Positions 3,444-16,211 of a DNA stretch of 41,798 bases are shown here, one piece after another. The DNA is from a virus (lineage: Duplodnaviria; Heunggongvirae; Uroviricota; Caudoviricetes), in IMG/VR virus record IMGVR_UViG_2563366805_000010, positions 1 to 41,798 of that record. The stretch is one strand, 5' to 3'. Position 1 is the first letter of the stretch, and each line of letters opens with the position of its first letter. The notes under the pieces are model-generated. The model was not told the DNA's origin. It did no database searches and saw only the letters and a program-made list of their open reading frames with translations. A program made the position numbers and the translations under genes.

Positions 3444-4115
3444 TTACAATTCGGTCATAAATTCGGTGATAGCCACGTCTACGGCGTGGAGGTCGTTGTC
3501 CATTTCCGTCTGGTCCGGGAACAGGTCGGGCGGCGCTTTGGCGGTGTCGTTGTCATCGCCTTTGATGAGAAAAACGTGTTTACCGTCCTTCTTGATGGCG
3601 CGCAGCACGATGGAGAAATAGCCCTCTGGAGTCAGCTTTTCGTTGAGCATCTTCCCGGTGGTCTTCATGCGGATCTTTCCCTCGGTCTCTTCGGTGTGAG
3701 CCAGGAAATAAACGCGGAAGTCGTCCGGCAGCTCGGTGGCCGCCATGATGATTCGCCAGATGTGATCTGCCATTTCGGTGAATTTGGCATAGCCGGTCTG
3801 GTACGCGCGGTTCATGTTCTCGTGCTGCATGACCACCTGGAAATCGTCGATGATCAGGACGCGGCGCGTTTTCGACTGCACCATGCGATAGATGGTGTCC
3901 AGCACCGTTTCCCAGTTATCCGAGCGCAGAACGTTACCGCGCTGTTTGCTTCCGTCTGGCAGCAGCTTGCCGTGAAGTTTCCAGCCCGCAGACTTGAACG
4001 GCAGCATTTTGGGAATGCACTGGAGCAGCATCACATCGTCCGGATTGAAGTTGCGCAGGCTGTAGGACTTGCCCGCGCCAGAGTCACCTAGGATCAGCAC
4101 TGGAGTACCCATCAT
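3444..4115 (-). CDS. Sak4-like RecA-fold recombination ATPase
   Basis: 223 aa; Walker A GDSGAGKS near N-terminus, Walker B VLIIDD; position next to exonuclease and SSB-like genes. Confidence 0.8.
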   Translation of the reverse strand: MMGTPVLILGDSGAGKSYSLRNFNPDDVMLLQCIPKMLPFKSAGWKLHGKLLPDGSKQRGNVLRSDNWETVLDTIYRMVQSKTRRVLIIDDFQVVMQHENMNRAYQTGYAKFTEMADHIWRIIMAATELPDDFRVYFLAHTEETEGKIRMKTTGKMLNEKLTPEGYFSIVLRAIKKDGKHVFLIKGDDNDTAKAPPDLFPDQTEMDNDLHAVDVAITEFMTEL

Positions 4116-4783
4116 TTACCCCCGTTCAGCCAGTGTTCAGCCGTAAACAGCACGTCTTCGTCTTCGCTGTTGGCAACGAGCCAGCGCAGGTAACCCGGTT
4201 CTGTTTTTGCCAGCTCTGCGAACGAGACGCCTTTATGCTTACCGAAGCGGAGCGCATGCAGCAGGGAAGGGTTATTGGAGATGGCGCGCATTTCGCCCAT
4301 CGTCCATTTCGCCAGGCGGCCCATATAGAGCAGCAATTCGGCGGTGACGTAGCAGTCATACAGCGCTCGGTGAGCGTAAAGCCCTTCAGGTACTTCCGGT
4401 TTCAGTCCGAGGCTGTAACGCAGGTACTGGTTGCTGTGGCTCTTGTGATCCGGCAGGAGCGAACGCGCCAGCTTAGCGGTACAGATCCACGGGGCGTTCA
4501 TTGCAGGAAGTTTGGCTTTATCGAACTTCGCGTTGTGGGCGACGTAGGCATCTGCCCCCAGATAGCGGCCAATTACTTCACTGAGCAGCGGCGCGCCTTC
4601 CACCATGTCTTCGGTGATATGGTGAATAGCCATGGCCTCAAAACCGATCGCCACGCCTGGCTTAACGAGGTCGCTCATTGGATTGCAGATCACCCCGTCG
4701 ACGATATCGACGCTGGCAATTTCCACCACGGTTTCCGGACCGCCTTCCAGCCCAGTCGTTTCGGTATCAATGACACGCAGCAT
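4112..4783 (-). CDS. DEDDh 3'-5' exonuclease (DnaQ/ExoX-like)
   Basis: Exo I motif VIDTETTG, Exo II HNAKFD, Exo III HRALYDCYVTAEL; start placed at internal ATG 4783 preceded by AGGGGA SD (track ORF extends to 4852). Confidence 0.8.
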   Translation of the reverse strand: MLRVIDTETTGLEGGPETVVEIASVDIVDGVICNPMSDLVKPGVAIGFEAMAIHHITEDMVEGAPLLSEVIGRYLGADAYVAHNAKFDKAKLPAMNAPWICTAKLARSLLPDHKSHSNQYLRYSLGLKPEVPEGLYAHRALYDCYVTAELLLYMGRLAKWTMGEMRAISNNPSLLHALRFGKHKGVSFAELAKTEPGYLRWLVANSEDEDVLFTAEHWLNGGK

Positions 4784-8427: not shown

Positions 8428-8592
8428 ATGCCAAAGAGCAAAAAGTACCAGGAAAATGAGGAACGACGCCTTCAGGATTCCCCTGACGGGCTGGTGGTTG
8501 CCGCGTCAAAAAACAGGGCGTTCGCCGAACGTCTTGTTGGCGTGATCCGTCTGGCTCTCGCTACGTCGGGAGTGAAAAATGGGCGTCGTTAA
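8428..8592 (+). CDS. Small hypothetical protein (54 aa)
   Basis: Below track cutoff; ATG with GAGG upstream; 3' end overlaps the O-like gene start. Confidence 0.3.
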   Translation: MPKSKKYQENEERRLQDSPDGLVVAASKNRAFAERLVGVIRLALATSGVKNGRR

Positions 8593-9469
8593 GTTAGCAG
8601 ACTACAGGCCGCCGCTGGAGGTCGTGGAGCATCGCGTGGCGCAGCTGGAAGATGGTTTTACTCGTGTTGCTAATGAGCTTCTCGATGCTGTCATGGCATC
8701 CGGACTAAGCGAAACAGAGCTGTGTGTCGTCCTCGCTGTTTGGCGCAAGACGTACGGCTACAACAAGAAGATGGACTGGGTTAGCAATGACCAGCTTGAG
8801 CAGATGATTGCCAAGCATCACACACACTGTTCGACTGCAAAAAATCAGCTTGTTGCCAAAAAAGTCTTGGTCCAGGAGGGGCGTAGCGTGGGTATGAATA
8901 CCAGCATCATCGAGTGGAAAACAAAGATTAACGGATTCTGCAAAACATTAGCTAAACCTGCTAAGGATTCTTTAGCGGAAGTTGCTAATAAAAACTTAGC
9001 TGAAAGTGCTAAGGAAACATTAGCGGAAGGTGCTAAGGATGATGGTGAAACCTTAGCAGAATCTGCTTTTGAAACTAAGCAGGATCTGCTAACCACAAAA
9101 GACAATATACAAAAGACAATAAACAATACCCCCCTACCCCCAGAGGGGGAGTGTGTCGGGCAGGAAGAAAAACCTGTCACAAAGAAAACTCAGATCGACT
9201 ACCAGGCGGTGCTGTCTGCATACAACACCACCCTGGGAGACCGCCTTCCCCAGGCAGAGGCACTAAACGACAAACGTCGCCGTGCTATCAAACGCCTGCT
9301 GACCGAACTGAAAGAGCCAACCGTCGAGGCGGTGGAGAATTACTTCGCCGCTTTCGCTGAGCGAGCACCAAAGTTTTACTTCGGTGAGAACGACAGAGGC
9401 TGGCGCGCCAGTTTCGATTATCTGTTGCGCTCTGACACCCTGCTGAAAACCAGGGAGAAAGCGCTATGA
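8579..9469 (+). CDS. Replication initiator (lambda O-like replisome organiser)
   Basis: N-terminal EDGFTRVANELLDAVMASGLSETELCVVLAVWRKTYGYNKK typical of the phage replisome-organiser N-domain; iteron-like repeats inside the gene; followed by helicase. Confidence 0.8.
   Translation: MGVVKLADYRPPLEVVEHRVAQLEDGFTRVANELLDAVMASGLSETELCVVLAVWRKTYGYNKKMDWVSNDQLEQMIAKHHTHCSTAKNQLVAKKVLVQEGRSVGMNTSIIEWKTKINGFCKTLAKPAKDSLAEVANKNLAESAKETLAEGAKDDGETLAESAFETKQDLLTTKDNIQKTINNTPLPPEGECVGQEEKPVTKKTQIDYQAVLSAYNTTLGDRLPQAEALNDKRRRAIKRLLTELKEPTVEAVENYFAAFAERAPKFYFGENDRGWRASFDYLLRSDTLLKTREKAL
8946..9067 (+). repeat. Iteron array (putative origin) inside the O-like gene
   Basis: About five tandem ~24-bp units with core TTAGC(G/T)GAA..GCTAAGGA encoding LAExAK repeats; followed by an A-rich stretch and a CCCCC-AGAG-GGGGG hairpin at ~9129-9150. 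Confidence 0.55.
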
Positions 9470-10863
9470 CCGACATGAACATGATCCCGCAGAACATCGA
9501 AGCCGAACAAAGTGTGCTGGGCGGCATGATGCTGGATAGCGGTAGCGATCGCTGCCAGACCGCCATGTCGATGCTCAAACCAGAATCGTTCTACATCCGC
9601 CCCCACCAGGTGATTTTCGCCGAGATGCGGGAGCTGGCAGCCAACCAGAAGCCTATCGACCTGATCACCCTGATTGAGTCGCTGGAATCTAAAGGGCTTG
9701 GCGAGCAGGCTGGTGGCTTCGCTTACATGGCCGAGATATCCAAAAACACTCCCAGCGCGGCGAACATCGTTCACTACGCCATGCTGGTGCGCGAGAAAGC
9801 CATGGAGCGTTACGGCATTGACAAGCTGAACAGCGCCACCGAGCTGCTGTATTCCCGCAACGGGATGACCACCAGCCAGAAGTTTGACGCTATTCAGACC
9901 CTGTTCACTGATATCGCTGACTACGCGAAAACCGGTAACCGCCGGGGGCTCCGCGAGTTTTCGGAAGTGATGGGCGACTGGGTGGACGAGGTGGAAGCGC
10001 GCTGGAGCGACTCAGACGCAACGCGTGGACTGTCGACGGGGATTGGCTCGCTGGATGACCTGCTGCAACCGAAAGGACTGGTTAAAGGCGCTCTGATGGT
10101 GATCGGCGCACGTCCGAAGATGGGTAAAACCACGCTGTATAGCCAGCTGGCCGTCAACTGTGCCGAAGTTGAGCAGCTCCCCGCGCTGATGTTTAGCCTC
10201 GAAATGCCGGATAAGCAGATTGTGGAGCGCATGGTGGGGCAGGTGAGCCGCGTAAATACCGATGTGTTTTATGGCGATCGGTACGACGACACAAAAGTCG
10301 CAATGGCCTTTGCTGCCGCTGGACGGCTGGCCCAGAACGGAAACCTGTACGTCGACGACACGCCCGGGATCACGCTGGCGCATATCGTCGCAGAGTCACG
10401 TCGCATCAAACGCGAACGCGGCGCTGTCGGCATGGTGCTGGTGGACTATCTGACCCTGATGACCGCCGACAAGGCTGACCGTAACGACCTGGCCTACGGG
10501 ATTATCACGAAGGGGCTGAAGAACCTGGCGAAGGAACTGAACTGCATCGTGGTGCTGCTTACCCAGCTGAACCGTGATCTGGAGAAGCGCACTAACAAAC
10601 GCCCGATGCCGAGTGATTCCCGCGACACCGGGCAGATTGAGCAGGATTGTGATTACTGGATCGGCATCTACCGCGAAGGCGCATACGACGAAAACGCAGA
10701 TCAGGCGGCTACCGAATTGCTGTTGCGCCTGAACCGCCACGGCCCGACCGGCGTTGTGTATTGCGACCAGCGCAACGGTGCGATCTACGACTGTGACCAG
10801 GCTGCTGCTGAGCAGAAACGCCGCGCGAATGATGCCAGACCCAACAAAAAGAGGGAATTTTGA
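9466..10863 (+). CDS. dnaB: DnaB-family replicative helicase
   Basis: 465 aa; Walker A GARPKMGKTT, Walker B region VLVDYLTLM; N-terminal DnaB-like domain. Confidence 0.9.
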   Translation: MTDMNMIPQNIEAEQSVLGGMMLDSGSDRCQTAMSMLKPESFYIRPHQVIFAEMRELAANQKPIDLITLIESLESKGLGEQAGGFAYMAEISKNTPSAANIVHYAMLVREKAMERYGIDKLNSATELLYSRNGMTTSQKFDAIQTLFTDIADYAKTGNRRGLREFSEVMGDWVDEVEARWSDSDATRGLSTGIGSLDDLLQPKGLVKGALMVIGARPKMGKTTLYSQLAVNCAEVEQLPALMFSLEMPDKQIVERMVGQVSRVNTDVFYGDRYDDTKVAMAFAAAGRLAQNGNLYVDDTPGITLAHIVAESRRIKRERGAVGMVLVDYLTLMTADKADRNDLAYGIITKGLKNLAKELNCIVVLLTQLNRDLEKRTNKRPMPSDSRDTGQIEQDCDYWIGIYREGAYDENADQAATELLLRLNRHGPTGVVYCDQRNGAIYDCDQAAAEQKRRANDARPNKKREF

Positions 10864-11153
10864 TGAAAATTTACATTGCTGGGCCAATGACCGGCATCCC
10901 GAAATTTAACCGCCCTGCGTTCCATTTTGAGGCTATGCGCCTGTCGTCGGAAGGCCATGTGGTGTTAAACCCTGCGACGCTTCCCGATGGCCTGAGCCAG
11001 CCAGAGTACATGGATATTTGTCTCGCTATGCTCCGCTGCGCTGACGGCATTTTCCTGCTGTCCGGCTGGCAGAAATCAGCAGGCGCAAAAGCGGAACACG
11101 CTCTGGCTCAAAAGCTGGATCTGGAAATCATTCATCAGGAGAACGCGGCATGA
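10863..11153 (+). CDS. Hypothetical protein, DUF4406-like
   Basis: MKIYIAGPMTG N-terminus; ATGA overlap with dnaB stop; family assignment from memory, not searched. Confidence 0.55.
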   Translation: MKIYIAGPMTGIPKFNRPAFHFEAMRLSSEGHVVLNPATLPDGLSQPEYMDICLAMLRCADGIFLLSGWQKSAGAKAEHALAQKLDLEIIHQENAA

Positions 11154-11665
11154 CCAACAAAACCAAAGAACTCGTAGCTGCCGGGCATGCGTTGGCTTCG
11201 GAACTGAAAGCAGAATGTGGTGCCGTTGATATGCGCAGTGTGGCAAAGCTGATCAGCGATTTGGCAACGCAACTGGAAGTGCAATTGGTGCGTGCTAATG
11301 CGCTGGCAGCGGAGAATGCGGGGCTGAAGGCTGGAATACTGCATGCCTCAGAAGATATGGAAGCACACCATGATGACTATGCCCTATTCAGCTATGACGC
11401 TGACGGCGAGCAAATGGACGCGCTATTACGGCTTTGTGATGCTCAGGATTCAATAGCATCGTTGGAGAATGCCAAAACACCAGCCACCGATGTTTTCCTG
11501 GCTGAAGTACGGGCGCAGGGCGTGGAGATGTTTGAACAGTGGTGTAGAGGTGAGCGCGATTTTACTCTCATTGATGAGGATGTTGCTGATGCAGCGGCTT
11601 ATGAAGAATGCGTAAAAAGAGCGGAATATTTCGCCGCCCAGCTTCGCAAAGGAGGCAACCAGTGA
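11150..11665 (+). CDS. Hypothetical protein (171 aa)
   Basis: ATGA-coupled to upstream gene; acidic, Ala-rich; no motif recognised. Confidence 0.55.
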   Translation: MTNKTKELVAAGHALASELKAECGAVDMRSVAKLISDLATQLEVQLVRANALAAENAGLKAGILHASEDMEAHHDDYALFSYDADGEQMDALLRLCDAQDSIASLENAKTPATDVFLAEVRAQGVEMFEQWCRGERDFTLIDEDVADAAAYEECVKRAEYFAAQLRKGGNQ

Positions 11666-12291
11666 GCAAGATTGACTATCAGGCACTGCGTGAGGCGGCA
11701 GAGCGTGCAATTCCGGCAATGGAACGCCTGTTAATGTTGCCAGTTGATGATGCTCTGATAAGCGAACAGGAACTTAAAGATAGCGGTGTTGATATTGATG
11801 CCCTCAACGCCTTCAAATTTCTGGCCGGACCAGAAACCGTGCTGGCACTACTGGATGAACGGGAAAGAAACCAGCAATACATCAAATCACGCGACCAGGA
11901 GAACGAGGATATTGCTCTTACGGTAGGGAAGCTGCGTGTTGAGCTTGAAGCAGCAAAATCAAAACTCAACGAGCAGCGTGAATATTACGAGGGAGTAATC
12001 GCGGATGGAAGTAAGCGCATTGCAGAACTGGAAGCACGGGAAATAAAACCAGCCAAAGGTGAAGTTCTTGTCGTTGTTTCTGGTTTTACTGGTTGCGGAA
12101 AAAGCGCCATTGCCGGGGAAATAGAAATCGCGATGAAGGCTATTGGTGTACCGGTTCAGTGGACTAATGGCGATGCGGAAAAGCGCATGACAGGAGCTGA
12201 CTGGCTGACAGCGATTGAGATGTACAAACCAACAGTGCGCATCGTGGAAGTTAATGTGCCACGCGCCGCTGGCATCGGTAAGGGGGAGTGA
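11662..12291 (+). CDS. Hypothetical coiled-coil protein with C-terminal P-loop-like motif
   Basis: GTG start overlapping upstream stop (GTGA) with GGAGG SD; coiled-coil centre; GFTGCGKS matches a Walker A pattern but the domain is short. Confidence 0.5.
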   Translation: MSKIDYQALREAAERAIPAMERLLMLPVDDALISEQELKDSGVDIDALNAFKFLAGPETVLALLDERERNQQYIKSRDQENEDIALTVGKLRVELEAAKSKLNEQREYYEGVIADGSKRIAELEAREIKPAKGEVLVVVSGFTGCGKSAIAGEIEIAMKAIGVPVQWTNGDAEKRMTGADWLTAIEMYKPTVRIVEVNVPRAAGIGKGE

Positions 12292-12722
12292 TGCTTCAAC
12301 ATCAAATGCAGCCAACATTTAACACCTGCATGGCTACCTGCGTTGCAATGGTTGCCGGTCAACCTGTCGATGAGGTAGTGGAACGCTGGCATCAGAAATT
12401 CCACGACAAAACAGACTGGCTCGACGACGCGCTGGATTATTACAAAATCCCGTATTTTTACGGAAGCCAGCGCAAGGCCGAATTGCTTTACGGGTTTATT
12501 TACTTCCTGACCGTTCCGTCACTGAACATCAAAGGCGGCCTGCATCAGATTCTGATGTCGTTAACGGCAGAACGCGGCATAGAAGTATTTGACCCGGCAA
12601 TGGGTCGGCCAGGATCAAAATATTACGTTTGTGGTGAAGCGCAGAACGATGATCAATTCGGCGTTATCTCCTGGTGCGTCGATTTATCGGTTCCGGTAGT
12701 GCAACAGAAAGGTGAGGACTAA
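12291..12722 (+). CDS. Hypothetical protein, possible papain/C39-like cysteine peptidase
   Basis: Q-x4-NTCMATCVAMVAG resembles the Gln...Cys active-site segment of C39-type peptidases; downstream His (GLHQIL); weak. Confidence 0.45.
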   Translation: MLQHQMQPTFNTCMATCVAMVAGQPVDEVVERWHQKFHDKTDWLDDALDYYKIPYFYGSQRKAELLYGFIYFLTVPSLNIKGGLHQILMSLTAERGIEVFDPAMGRPGSKYYVCGEAQNDDQFGVISWCVDLSVPVVQQKGED

Positions 12723-12725
12723 CCC

Positions 12726-13595
12726 ATGAGCACTATTACCAAAGAACGTATTGAATTGTTCATTAAAAATCCGCTTGAAAACGGGCTTACCCGTGGTGAA
12801 CAAATGGAACTGGCACGGATTGCGCTGGCATCGCTCGAAGCGGAGGCTGTGGCGTATATGCATCACAGCGGGCAGGTTGTGACGCGGGAAGAGTGCTGTG
12901 ACGACAAGATATTCGCCATTTGCTGTAAAGTCGAAACTCCCCTCTACGCAGCACCACAGTTACCGCAGCCAGTGGTGGCAATAACTCAGCATTTCGACAC
13001 AATCGCACTTGATACGGCAAAGATGGTTATGTGCGATGTGAATCGCCGCGATGAGTTTTTTGGCGGTGATATCCAGTTGCTATCCCGCATTCAATGCCGC
13101 ATTGACGAAGCCTGCCGCGCAGCCATGCTTCAGGGTAGCCAACCTGTAAGTAAGCGCGAACAGGTTCGCCGTGAACACGCTGAATGGTCAGATAAGACTT
13201 TCGGCGATGTTGGTCCCGTTGGCCCGCTTAAACACCTGTCGAAAGAGGCGCTGGAAGCTGCCGCAGAACCTGACGACCTCAGCGAGTGGGCTGACATGCA
13301 GTTCCTGTTATGGGACGCCCAGCGGCGCGCCGGTATCAGTGACGGTGAAATCACAGCTGCGATGGAAGAAAAGCTGAAAGTGAACATGGCGCGCCAGTGG
13401 CCGGAGCCGAAGGACGGAGAGCCGCGCCAGCATCTTAAGCCAGCGCCGCAGACAGTGCCTGATTCTGTGATCAGCGCAGCAGTAAATGGAATTATGGCAA
13501 CTTATGCCGACAATGCGGAAGATTGCCGGGAAATGGTACGCACACATGTTGAACAAGCCTGTCGTGCCGCTATTCAGGAGTCCGGTCATGGCTAA
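12726..13595 (+). CDS. MazG-like NTP pyrophosphohydrolase domain protein (DUF550-like)
   Basis: C-terminal FGDVGPVGPLKHLSKEALEAAAEPDDLSEWADMQFLLWDAQRRAGISD has the MazG EExxE...D pattern; N-terminal ~130 aa unassigned. Confidence 0.6.
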   Translation: MSTITKERIELFIKNPLENGLTRGEQMELARIALASLEAEAVAYMHHSGQVVTREECCDDKIFAICCKVETPLYAAPQLPQPVVAITQHFDTIALDTAKMVMCDVNRRDEFFGGDIQLLSRIQCRIDEACRAAMLQGSQPVSKREQVRREHAEWSDKTFGDVGPVGPLKHLSKEALEAAAEPDDLSEWADMQFLLWDAQRRAGISDGEITAAMEEKLKVNMARQWPEPKDGEPRQHLKPAPQTVPDSVISAAVNGIMATYADNAEDCREMVRTHVEQACRAAIQESGHG

Positions 13596-13926
13596 ATCTG
13601 CCGCTGAACGCAAAGCCGCCCAGCGAGCCCGGCAAGCTGCTGCTGGTGGTCGTAAATTTGAGCTCATGCTTGATACGCAGGAACTGGAGATGCTGGAGCG
13701 CAATTGTGCATCACGCCGCCCGGGGCGAGCGCCGTATGAAATGAGCGAATACGTCGCGATGCTGATCCGCCAGGACGATGCCCGCGTTCGTGGTCGCATT
13801 AAGTCAATCAGCGCGAACCGCTGCGGTAAATGCGGAGATGCGCTGCCGGTTAAGTCGTGTCCGTGCGACGGTGATTCGAAATGCTGGGTTACGCGTGGCT
13901 GGCATGAAACTAAATTAGCATTGTGA
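13588..13926 (+). CDS. Hypothetical zinc-ribbon protein (112 aa)
   Basis: Start overlaps upstream stop; CGKCG...CPCDG; basic N-terminus. Confidence 0.5.
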   Translation: MAKSAAERKAAQRARQAAAGGRKFELMLDTQELEMLERNCASRRPGRAPYEMSEYVAMLIRQDDARVRGRIKSISANRCGKCGDALPVKSCPCDGDSKCWVTRGWHETKLAL

Positions 13927-13955
13927 CATGTCACAATGTAATCAATAACATACAA

Positions 13956-13976
13956 GCCTCTTCGGAGGCTTTTTTT
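13956..13976 (+). terminator. Rho-independent terminator
   Basis: GCCTC-TTCG-GAGGC hairpin followed by seven T. Confidence 0.6.
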
Positions 13977-14071
13977 GTCGGCGTTAAATTGCTTTTGCCA
14001 CAATGCCCATCCATAATATCCCTGTCAGCCTGAACAACTGACACCCGGACATTCGCGCCACGGAGAACACC

Positions 14072-14908: not shown

Positions 14909-15264
14909 AAATTTACGACATCACGCCGATCGGCAAGCCCCGTATGACCCGCGCCGACAAATGGAAAACACGGCCTGCGGTCATGCGTTACCGCGCATTC
15001 TGCGATGAAGCACGTCTGCGCAAAATCAATCTCCCTGAGTCCGGCGCGCATATCACCTTCGTTATGCCAATGCCTCCGAGCTGGAGCAAAAAGAAGCGTG
15101 AACAGCTCAACGGCAAGCCGCACCAGTCAAAACCAGACTGCGACAACATGCTTAAAGCACTGATGGATGCCCTGTTTGATGATGATTCCAGTGTCTGGGA
15201 TTGTCGCATTACAAAGCTATGGGGCGAGAAAGGCCAGATCATCATTCGGGAGAACGGACAATGA
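14905..15264 (+). CDS. rusA: RusA-family Holliday junction resolvase
   Basis: 119 aa; KPDCDNMLKALMDALFDD catalytic acidic cluster; ATGA coupling; nin-region position. Confidence 0.8.
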   Translation: MKIYDITPIGKPRMTRADKWKTRPAVMRYRAFCDEARLRKINLPESGAHITFVMPMPPSWSKKKREQLNGKPHQSKPDCDNMLKALMDALFDDDSSVWDCRITKLWGEKGQIIIRENGQ

Positions 15265-15944
15265 CACGCACCGATATTAACAATTACCAGAAAGCGTCTG
15301 TTGAGCGTACCAACCCGCAAAACGCCTGGGTGACGCTGGCAGCAGCACCACGCAGATCTTACCTGGGGAAATACCGCCGACTGACACCATCGCAAAGCCG
15401 TTGGGTTCGTTCGTTGCTGAACAACTGGGGCGGCATGTATGGAGGCAGCGGAATAGAACACCTTTCAGGTGGCGGTGGTATGTGGTCAATGATATTGACC
15501 GGCTGGACTGGCGAACAGCAGGAGCGGATCGCTACCGTACTGTCTGGTCTGCGTAAAATTGGCTATACCGGAGATGCGTTGTTTGAGCAGGCTAAAGCCA
15601 TCATCTGGCCGAAGAAATCACTTTCTGACCTGATCGGCAACGCCGGGGATCAAGAGGAAGCTGCATTCATGGAGGCTATCATCCTGAAGTCCTTCAAGCC
15701 GGGGAATCCCGTGTATGAGATAGGGAAGGACTATTACACCTGGAGGAAAACCATTAATGACATGGCACGGTGGATGCAATATTACTACGCGCCGTTTCTG
15801 ACCGAAAAGCAATGTATTGACCGCGTGCGCTGGTGTATTGAGTTGTTTAATTCTGCTGTCTTCTTCACGTTAAAAGATGAATTTGGCTTCGAAAATGCAA
15901 AAACTTGCGAAAAAGACTTGAAAACGAGTTTTGAAACTGCATAA
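15261..15944 (+). CDS. Putative late antiterminator (Q-like)
   Basis: 227 aa immediately upstream of the predicted late promoter and terminator and the lysis cassette; no similarity to lambda Q, call rests mainly on position. Confidence 0.5.
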   Translation: MTRTDINNYQKASVERTNPQNAWVTLAAAPRRSYLGKYRRLTPSQSRWVRSLLNNWGGMYGGSGIEHLSGGGGMWSMILTGWTGEQQERIATVLSGLRKIGYTGDALFEQAKAIIWPKKSLSDLIGNAGDQEEAAFMEAIILKSFKPGNPVYEIGKDYYTWRKTINDMARWMQYYYAPFLTEKQCIDRVRWCIELFNSAVFFTLKDEFGFENAKTCEKDLKTSFETA

Positions 15945-15946: not shown

Positions 15947-16028
15947 CAGATATGCTCGGACGTCAAAGGCGAAAGAGCTTACCCACCAGCGGAGATGCCT
16001 TGCGCGGAGCGGTGTGAACCACATTTAA

Positions 16029-16055
16029 GCCCTTGCAGAAATGCAGGGGCTTTTT
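16029..16055 (+). terminator. Rho-independent terminator (tR'-like)
   Basis: GCCCTTGCA-GAAA-TGCAGGGGC hairpin with GNRA loop followed by TTTTT. Confidence 0.6.
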
Positions 16056-16062
16056 GCATTCA

Positions 16063-16137
16063 GGGTCAGAAGCACAGAGGTTGTGAGATCGGCTGTTAAC
16101 CGATTGGTCGAAGGTTCGAATCCTTCCTGTCCCGCCA
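16063..16137 (+). tRNA. tRNA-Asn (anticodon GTT)-like gene
   Basis: Hand-folded cloverleaf: acceptor GGGTCAG/CTGTCCC (one T-T mismatch), D-stem 3 of 4 pairs with GG in loop, anticodon stem ATCGG/CCGAT with loop CTGTTAA, 5-nt variable loop, T-arm GAAGG-TTCGAAT-CCTTC, discriminator G and encoded CCA. Confidence 0.5.
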
Positions 16138-16187: not shown

Positions 16188-16211
16188 GCCCACCGCGCCG
16201 TGGGCTTTTTT
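16188..16211 (+). terminator. Rho-independent terminator
   Basis: GCCCAC-CGCGCC-GTGGGC hairpin followed by six T. Confidence 0.6.

Follow-up and report, generated by a model that had tools for sequence, protein, structure and literature searches.

The C39 family of cysteine peptidases is represented by the double-glycine-leader peptidase domains of PCAT/AMS ATP-binding cassette (ABC) exporters, among them ComA PEP, PCAT1 and LahT150. The DUF550/MazZ enzymes, such as MazZ of cyanophage S-2L (PDB 7ODY) and the DUF550 protein of Acinetobacter phage SH-Ab 15497, convert dGTP (and, in SH-Ab 15497, dATP too) to the monophosphate and pyrophosphate (PMC12884076, PMC8342488), the EaA protein of phage P22 and the lambdoid Ead/Ea22 proteins are shuffled at short linker motifs, and the classical ribbon-helix-helix (RHH) proteins are represented by regulators such as Arc/CopG/ParD, AcaB and MatP. 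Here these systems are compared with an interval of three plus-strand genes (genes 1-3, positions 12291-13926) in a 41,798-nucleotide stretch of Caudoviricetes DNA (IMG/VR record IMGVR_UViG_2563366805_000010, positions 1 to 41,798), referred to below as the window. The interval forms the distal part of the early-right (replication) operon in a temperate lambdoid phage. It probably consists of three separately acquired accessory genes, for a C39-like peptidase, an EaA-type pyrophosphohydrolase and a DNA- or RNA-binding regulator with a four-cysteine (C4) cluster, and represents mosaic cargo and not one system.

The preliminary description of this DNA, made from the letters alone, had presented the three genes as an accessory cluster that could be metabolic or anti-defence; a functional cluster, however, is not supported by the inheritance of the genes. 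Co-occurrence was assessed in 80 viral loci centred on relatives of gene 1 (±4 kb) and in 80 loci centred on relatives of gene 3. The DUF550 domain that forms the C-terminal part of gene 2 was present in 8/80 of the gene-1-centred loci and gene 3 in 5/80; around gene 3, DUF550 was present in 24/80 loci (directly upstream in 14) and gene 1 in 4/80. The open reading frame (ORF) directly downstream of 73 non-identical gene 1 relatives encoded NinB in 18 cases, DUF551 in seven, PF04447 (DUF550) in six and topoisomerase IV-A in five, with a scatter of others, and all six PF04447 cases belonged to close enterobacterial relatives. Across these diverged genomes no conserved co-occurrence or order of genes 1-3 was found, and near-identical copies of each gene occur in differing neighbourhoods, without the other two, in E. 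coli prophages and in Citrobacter phage Omnitron. Because the three genes assort independently, a functional cluster is not supported. The preliminary description had also named what would speak against its cluster, namely the assignment of all three proteins to ordinary phage families with unrelated known roles; the families are indeed ordinary and widespread, but a role in such phages is known for none of them.

The alternative is a single module, metabolic or anti-defence, in which the peptidase would, for example, process or activate the EaA/MazG-like protein and gene 3 would regulate the pair. The tight translational coupling of the genes would fit such a module, but the accessory genes upstream are coupled in the same manner, and coupling is therefore a property of the whole operon and not of genes 1-3. 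Two observations weigh against separate acquisition and are consistent with a module. One is a natural fusion, a metagenomic protein of 264 residues (P0292) that combines a MazG-like domain (phrog_1247, E = 1.5e-10) with a domain of phrog_4049, the family of gene 1; the other is the position of DUF550 directly before gene 3 in the 14 loci mentioned above. However, P0292 is a single case, the sole MazG-like fusion among the longer gene 1 family members checked, and a second fusion (P0207, whose N-terminal phrog_1972 segment has no known function and appears DUF551-like by eye) suggests that fusions mirror the neighbourhood. Together with one zinc-ribbon fusion, these proteins were too few and too mixed to be used as Rosetta stones for a partner of gene 1. 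Given the low co-occurrence, the heterogeneous neighbours of gene 1 and the presence of each gene without the others, a single module is very improbable, and the three genes are treated below as separate acquisitions.

Gene 1 (12291..12722, plus strand) encodes a protein of 143 residues which, as predicted from its family alignment and modelled fold, is a stand-alone, cytoplasmic C39-like cysteine peptidase (clan CA, papain fold) with an intact catalytic tetrad. Its ATG at 12291 forms an ATGA with the TGA that closes the Ead/Ea22-like gene upstream and is preceded by the ribosome-binding site AAGGGGGAG, and this start is backed by homologue lengths of 142-146 residues. The protein matches phrog_4049 (E = 1.6e-51), a family of unknown function in PHROG that is annotated as hypothetical almost everywhere, and has no match in Pfam (E <= 0.1), NCBIfam, PADLOC or the PDB sequence set; in the absence of direct matches, the assignment required a family alignment and a fold search. 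An exhaustive profile search (E <= 1e-3) recovered at least 715 clusters at 50% identity, nearly all of them stand-alone proteins of 115-190 residues. Among 106 diverse relatives, down to ~25% identity, the only invariant columns are Q7 (12309-12311), C13 (12327-12329), H85 (12543-12545), D101 (12591-12593) and P102. The fold search returned a papain-like alpha+beta fold in which the nucleophile cysteine heads a helix, with matches to Josephin-2 (6.7), the C39 domain of PCAT1 (6.4), the peptidase domain of ComA (5.7), PeiR (5.6), the LahT-type double-glycine protease 6mpz (5.4), the C39-like domain of HlyB (5.3) and Staphopain (5.3), and with AvrRpt2 and others below Staphopain. The Pfam model for Peptidase_C39 (PF03412) is matched by 16 of the 106 relatives (best E = 2.4e-6), and the family profile aligns the Q, C, H and D of gene 1 to the Q, C, H and D of 6mpz at E = 1.1, a value that is non-significant alone and was taken as support for the alignment, never as evidence by itself. 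Additionally, a fold search of BFVD matched gene 1 to a Bacillus phage 'Peptidase C39 domain' protein, and in one case, a Nonagvirus homologue, the depositor had annotated a 'papain-like cysteine protease'. The fold, the invariant tetrad and the PF03412 matches thus bear out the C39-like call of the preliminary description.

Within this predicted active site, C13 would act as the nucleophile, H85 and D101 would complete the triad and Q7 would form the oxyanion hole. By analogy with the C39 and Josephin enzymes, from which we infer its substrate, the protein would most likely cleave a host (or phage) protein behind two small residues, for example Gly-Gly. The analogy has clear boundaries. Unlike the exporter-borne C39 domains, gene 1 has no ABC transporter or double-glycine-leader gene nearby and sits, stand-alone and presumably cytoplasmic, in the early/nin region of a phage; no Pfam transporter family was detected among the neighbours scanned. 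Since both the ABC exporter and a cargo with a double-glycine leader are missing, the protein is better described as one that would work like C39 than as a canonical member of the family. Double-glycine motifs in the adjacent genes were considered as substrates, but neither FFGG in gene 2 nor AAGG in gene 3 fits the leader consensus, and in the latter the second glycine is not conserved (by inspection only). The likeness to Josephin-type deubiquitinases and to the bacterial Josephin-like 'clippases' is not accompanied by sequence-level similarity or by a ubiquitin-like partner in the neighbourhood, and may reflect just the core that C39 and Josephin share.

Two points count against a peptidase. 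The gene 1 protein of the window itself reaches no Pfam peptidase model, and amidases, acyltransferases and transglutaminases likewise adopt the papain fold. Gene 1 could then encode a papain-fold enzyme of a different kind (an amidase, deamidase, acyltransferase or transglutaminase), or a de-conjugase specific for Gly-Gly that removes ubiquitin-like modifications; this we regard as unlikely, as all sequence-level signals, the PF03412 matches among the relatives and the appearance of 6mpz in the profile search, favour C39, and the de-conjugase lacks a nearby gene related to ubiquitin-like proteins. A related proposal retains the peptidase and places it in counter-defence. In this scenario phrog_4049 would be a phage Gly-Gly-specific cysteine peptidase that strips ubiquitin-like conjugates (Bil-type), reverses CD-NTase conjugation in type II CBASS (cyclic oligonucleotide-based antiphage signalling), or cuts, at an early stage of infection, an immune or housekeeping protein of the host, which is decidedly improbable as a specific role for the C39-like peptidase predicted here.

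The gene 1 family is distributed over 193 phage records that include lambdoid prophages, Ackermannviridae, Seuratvirus and Nonagvirus (both Queuovirinae), Pseudomonas phages and the vibriophage phiVC8. Relatives of gene 1 thus occur in several groups with modified DNA, the Z-genome phages phiVC8, VP2 and VP5, the Queuovirinae (7-deazaguanine) and the ViI-like phages, and the overlap may be coincidence. The phiVC8 relative is p37 (locus L294, 5492-5956). The idea that it lies beside MazZ/PurZ was dropped, as its neighbours gave no MazG-like Pfam match.

Gene 2 (12726..13595, plus strand) starts with an ATG at 12726, 3 nucleotides past the stop of gene 1, and encodes a 289-residue mosaic EaA-type protein. 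Its relatives in phages and prophages are labelled EaA, DUF550 or dATP/dGTP pyrophosphohydrolase domain protein, with the 'EaA' annotation carried by proteins of this type in mEp390, KpF5 and others, and its PHROG matches divide between the N-terminal and C-terminal parts. The C-terminal part contains a PF04447 (DUF550/MazZ-type) all-alpha nucleoside triphosphate (NTP) pyrophosphohydrolase domain at residues 148-241 (13167..13448, plus strand), matched at E = 6.4e-43 and 145.4 bits (cut-off 23) over model positions 2-95 of 97. The protein also matches MazZ of S-2L (7ODY) at E = 0.0034. With the catalytic residues of MazZ taken from PMC8342488, the metal ligands E35, E38, E50 and D53 correspond to E174, E177, E187 and D190 of gene 2 (encoded in 13245-13295), and the residues at the positions of K76, N80, R83 and W85 are identical. 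D60, which in MazZ contacts the 2-amino group of guanine (PMC8342488), is retained as D197, and N20 falls in a poorly aligned loop. Four of the five MazZ metal ligands (E34, E35, E38, E50 and D53) are therefore kept; the replacement of E34 by K173 is a point against a fully MazZ-like enzyme. The preliminary description had assigned a MazG-type protein with an EExxE motif, and the family stands through PF04447 and the 7ODY match; the motif, however, reads K173-E174-x-x-E177...E187-x-x-D190, with lysine aligned to the first glutamate of MazZ.

From the enzymology of MazZ and DUF550 we infer that the C-terminal domain would hydrolyse purine (deoxy)nucleoside triphosphates, most likely dGTP and possibly dATP, to the corresponding monophosphates and pyrophosphate, using divalent cations held by E174, E177, E187 and D190 (Mn2+ in the MazZ crystal, Mg2+ in related enzymes), and that during replication it would keep the nucleotide pool trimmed or sanitised. 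The setting differs from that of the Z-genome cluster (datZ-mazZ-purZ) in that the window is an ordinary lambdoid mosaic. Its large ORFs encode an integrase, a Dam methylase, an AAA protein, an exonuclease, Rep-O, a helicase and structural proteins, without an adenylosuccinate-synthetase-like match, and no PurZ- or DatZ-like gene was seen among the ORFs scanned, which comprised the large ORFs and not every small one. As no such gene was present among them, the gene 2 domain would not serve 2-aminoadenine synthesis, and general trimming or sanitising of the purine deoxynucleoside triphosphate (dNTP) pool would be the most economical role.

A more specific role would be a functional pair with the upstream DUF4406 gene (10860-11153), a nucleoside 2-deoxyribosyltransferase (NDT)/DNPH1-like gene directly after the helicase, in which purine dNTPs would be converted to dNMPs and these to the base and deoxyribose-5-phosphate. 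In Z-genome phages NDT-like and dNTP-hydrolase pairs operate jointly (PMC12884076), the two genes of the window share an operon, and gene-3-centred loci with full flanks contained both domains in 13 cases, DUF550 only in nine, DUF4406 only in nine and neither in 36 (odds ratio ~5.8). This association, however, is confounded by shared ancestry, in that the DnaB-DUF4406 block is inherited together; the two genes also stand three unrelated genes apart, and the activity of DUF4406 on nucleotides is itself only putative. Such a pair is thus quite unlikely.

Relative to MazZ, with which it shares PF04447 membership, gene 2 carries an extra N-terminal module of 135 residues and a 45-residue tail that are without a MazZ counterpart. 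The N-terminal module (12726..13106, plus strand; residues 1-127) has no known function, matches phrog_3323, phrog_660 and phrog_5117 (all of unknown function), and is a shuffling unit that is also found joined to DUF551. Gene 2 shares this leader module with P22 EaA and the lambdoid Ead/Ea22 proteins, and the shuffling at short linker motifs is the same; the start of P22 eaA and the first ~45 codons of gene 2 are 91% identical in DNA over about 146 nucleotides. The ea genes of P22, however, lie in the early-left operon, and gene 2 lies between the replication genes and NinB. Two nearly identical sequences delimit the modules. E. coli EC09 matches gene 1 and codons 1-136 of gene 2 at 99.1% identity and continues with a DUF551 gene instead of the DUF550 domain, and phage Omnitron matches gene 2 from codon 128 onwards, gene 3, the terminator and NinB at 99.7% identity. 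Since the EC09 match runs up to 13133 and that of Omnitron starts at 13107, the two share 27 nucleotides alone (13107..13133, plus strand; codons 128-136, EACRAAMLQ), and the linker they encode is likely a recombination joint. A similar sequence, EQACRAAIQES, recurs near the C-terminus (residues 277-287; 13554-13586), and EACRAAMLQ resembles a site of micro-homology at which Ea-type proteins exchange modules. The N-terminal module would thus be a swappable part, and its combination with DUF550 had no record at >=80% coverage in the two collections searched. In a Salmonella prophage locus (L003), the gene at 3450-4001, directly before the gene 3 homologue, is a decayed mosaic, in which a DUF550 fragment minus its active-site helix (REHAEWSD followed by MQFLLWDAQRRAG) precedes a C-terminal segment similar, as judged by eye, to DUF551-type proteins. 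The locus shows that these modules are still being eroded and shuffled.

Gene 3 (13588..13926, plus strand) begins with an ATG at 13588, so that its first 8 nucleotides lie within the end of gene 2, and encodes a basic protein of 112 residues with an N-terminal helix/RHH-like segment and a C-terminal C4 cluster (C79, C82, C91 and C99; 13822-13884). The length equals that of nearly all of the 120 homologues listed, and a longer ORF of 146 residues from 13486 was rejected in view of the 112-residue homologues. The protein belongs to phrog_536 ('transcriptional regulator'; E = 8.8e-51, model positions 2-113 of 115). Its family counts 742 clusters in prophages of Enterobacterales, none of the 120 listed bearing a functional name, and has members in epsilon15, phiV10, SPN1S, ZF40 (gp22), N15 (gp46), Yersinia P2-like phages and Vibrio phages. 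Conserved positions are C40, R43-R44, P49-Y50, E54, L59-I60-R61 and C79-x2-C82...C91-x7-C99, with the four cysteines kept from the window to the N15, ZF40 and Yersinia homologues. The preliminary description had read a ribbon with CxxC and CxC motifs; the C4 cluster is conserved, as CxxC-x8-C-x7-C, but CxC is not, its second cysteine (C93) varying among homologues.

These features suggest a small basic protein in which the C4 knuckle binds metal and which probably acts as a regulator by binding DNA (or RNA). The C4 region was modelled with low confidence (predicted local distance difference test, pLDDT, 54-65), and the matches to metal-binding families (Fer4_20 and zf) were sub-threshold only. 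Comparison with RHH regulators (Arc/CopG/ParD, AcaB and MatP) gave no significant sequence or fold match to gene 3, which differs from the classical RHH proteins in its additional N-terminal basic helix and C-terminal four-cysteine cluster. The genomic position of the gene varies notably little. In E. coli, Salmonella and Pectobacterium (ZF40), it is often the last gene before a terminator and NinB or other nin genes, and NinB follows directly in 17/80 viral loci.

A 20-bp perfect palindrome, CATTGTGACATGTCACAATG, spans 13919..13938 and overlaps the stop codon of gene 3. At the stop codon of gene 3, 76 of 80 relatives carry its 12-bp core; ZF40 has it too, and the N15 and KpLi5 homologues, with ~33% protein identity, have it as CGTGACTGGTCACG. 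Further instances are at 4336-4347 in loci L003-L007, 2776-2787 in L009, 2746-2757 in L008 and 8106-8117 in L016. A second exact copy lies 2.2-2.8 kb downstream in 36-38/80 loci, between the stop of a convergent gene and its terminator. The palindrome may bind a protein (possibly that of gene 3), fold as an RNA hairpin (predicted at -10.4 kcal/mol) or serve as a recombination site at a module boundary. In a cis/trans pairing of gene 3 with the palindrome, the protein would recognise GTGACATGTCAC sites located between stop codons and intrinsic terminators and would modulate termination or read-through at module boundaries, as suggested by the stop-codon position in the relatives, the persistence of CGTGACTGGTCACG at low protein identity and the second copies beside terminators. 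But the palindrome is not exclusive to gene 3, as it also occurs next to Cro-like helix-turn-helix genes in phages that carry no gene 3 in the surrounding 3.5 kb; the Yersinia, Vibrio and Aeromonas homologues of gene 3 are not followed by it, and the window holds a single copy. DNA binding by gene 3 is itself putative, and the palindrome could instead serve as an RNA hairpin or a recombination hotspot; such a pair is possible though doubtful. The reading of gene 3 as a probable C4 regulator is retained here, with the palindrome as a candidate site.

The surroundings of the interval agree with this picture of cargo. The window is a temperate lambdoid mosaic, with the integrase, Dam methylase and exonuclease in its left part and, to the right of the nin genes, lysis genes followed by myovirus-type structural genes; for part of the region, Omnitron is the nearest relative among public sequences. 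Rep-O (8579-9469) and a DnaB-type helicase (9466-10863) precede an unbroken series of six translationally coupled accessory genes that ends at an intrinsic terminator, with genes 1-3 as the last three. The order is helicase, DUF4406, the phrog_492 protein (11150-11665), the Ead/Ea22-like gene (ending at 12291, directly upstream of gene 1), genes 1-3, terminator, NinB, an HNH/YbcO-like gene and RusA. The terminator (13954..13978, plus strand) occupies a tR2-like position and parts the replication/accessory operon from NinB; its hairpin (13954-13971) has a G+C-rich stem of 7 bp and a UUCG loop, is followed by seven T, and is predicted at -10.6 kcal/mol (z = -3.5). The preliminary description had correctly located three tightly coupled ORFs and the terminator behind them. 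It had also placed them between the replication module and this terminator, which is right for the terminator, but the DUF4406, phrog_492 and Ead/Ea22-like genes intervene between the helicase and gene 1. Within the interval, antisense ORFs matched no phage family, a PADLOC search gave no match, and an Rfam scan returned nothing meaningful, its sole match being a chance-level snoRNA (E = 0.73, far below the gathering score).

Farther downstream, an ORF of 247 residues (15201-15944) had no Pfam match at E <= 0.001; lambdoid phages usually carry the late antiterminator Q in this place. Behind it and before the lysis region lies a tRNA-Asn (GTT) gene (16063-16137), between terminator-like hairpins at 16027-16052 and 16188-16205.

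Mosaic cargo of this kind is typical of lambdoid phages where the replication and nin genes meet, and calling the interval a system would mislead. The individual genes carry their own implications. DUF550/MazZ-type dNTP pyrophosphohydrolases, which to our knowledge have been characterised in Z-genome phages only, are common in ordinary lambdoid phages. The palindrome at the gene 3 stop codon, repeated next to terminators, constitutes an unexplained cis element that may mark module boundaries or the binding site of a regulator. And phrog_4049, nearly all members of which are listed as 'hypothetical' in databases, can now be annotated as a predicted stand-alone C39-like cysteine peptidase, on the strength of its sequence family and modelled fold, which gives a testable handle on a gene found in many therapeutic and model phages.

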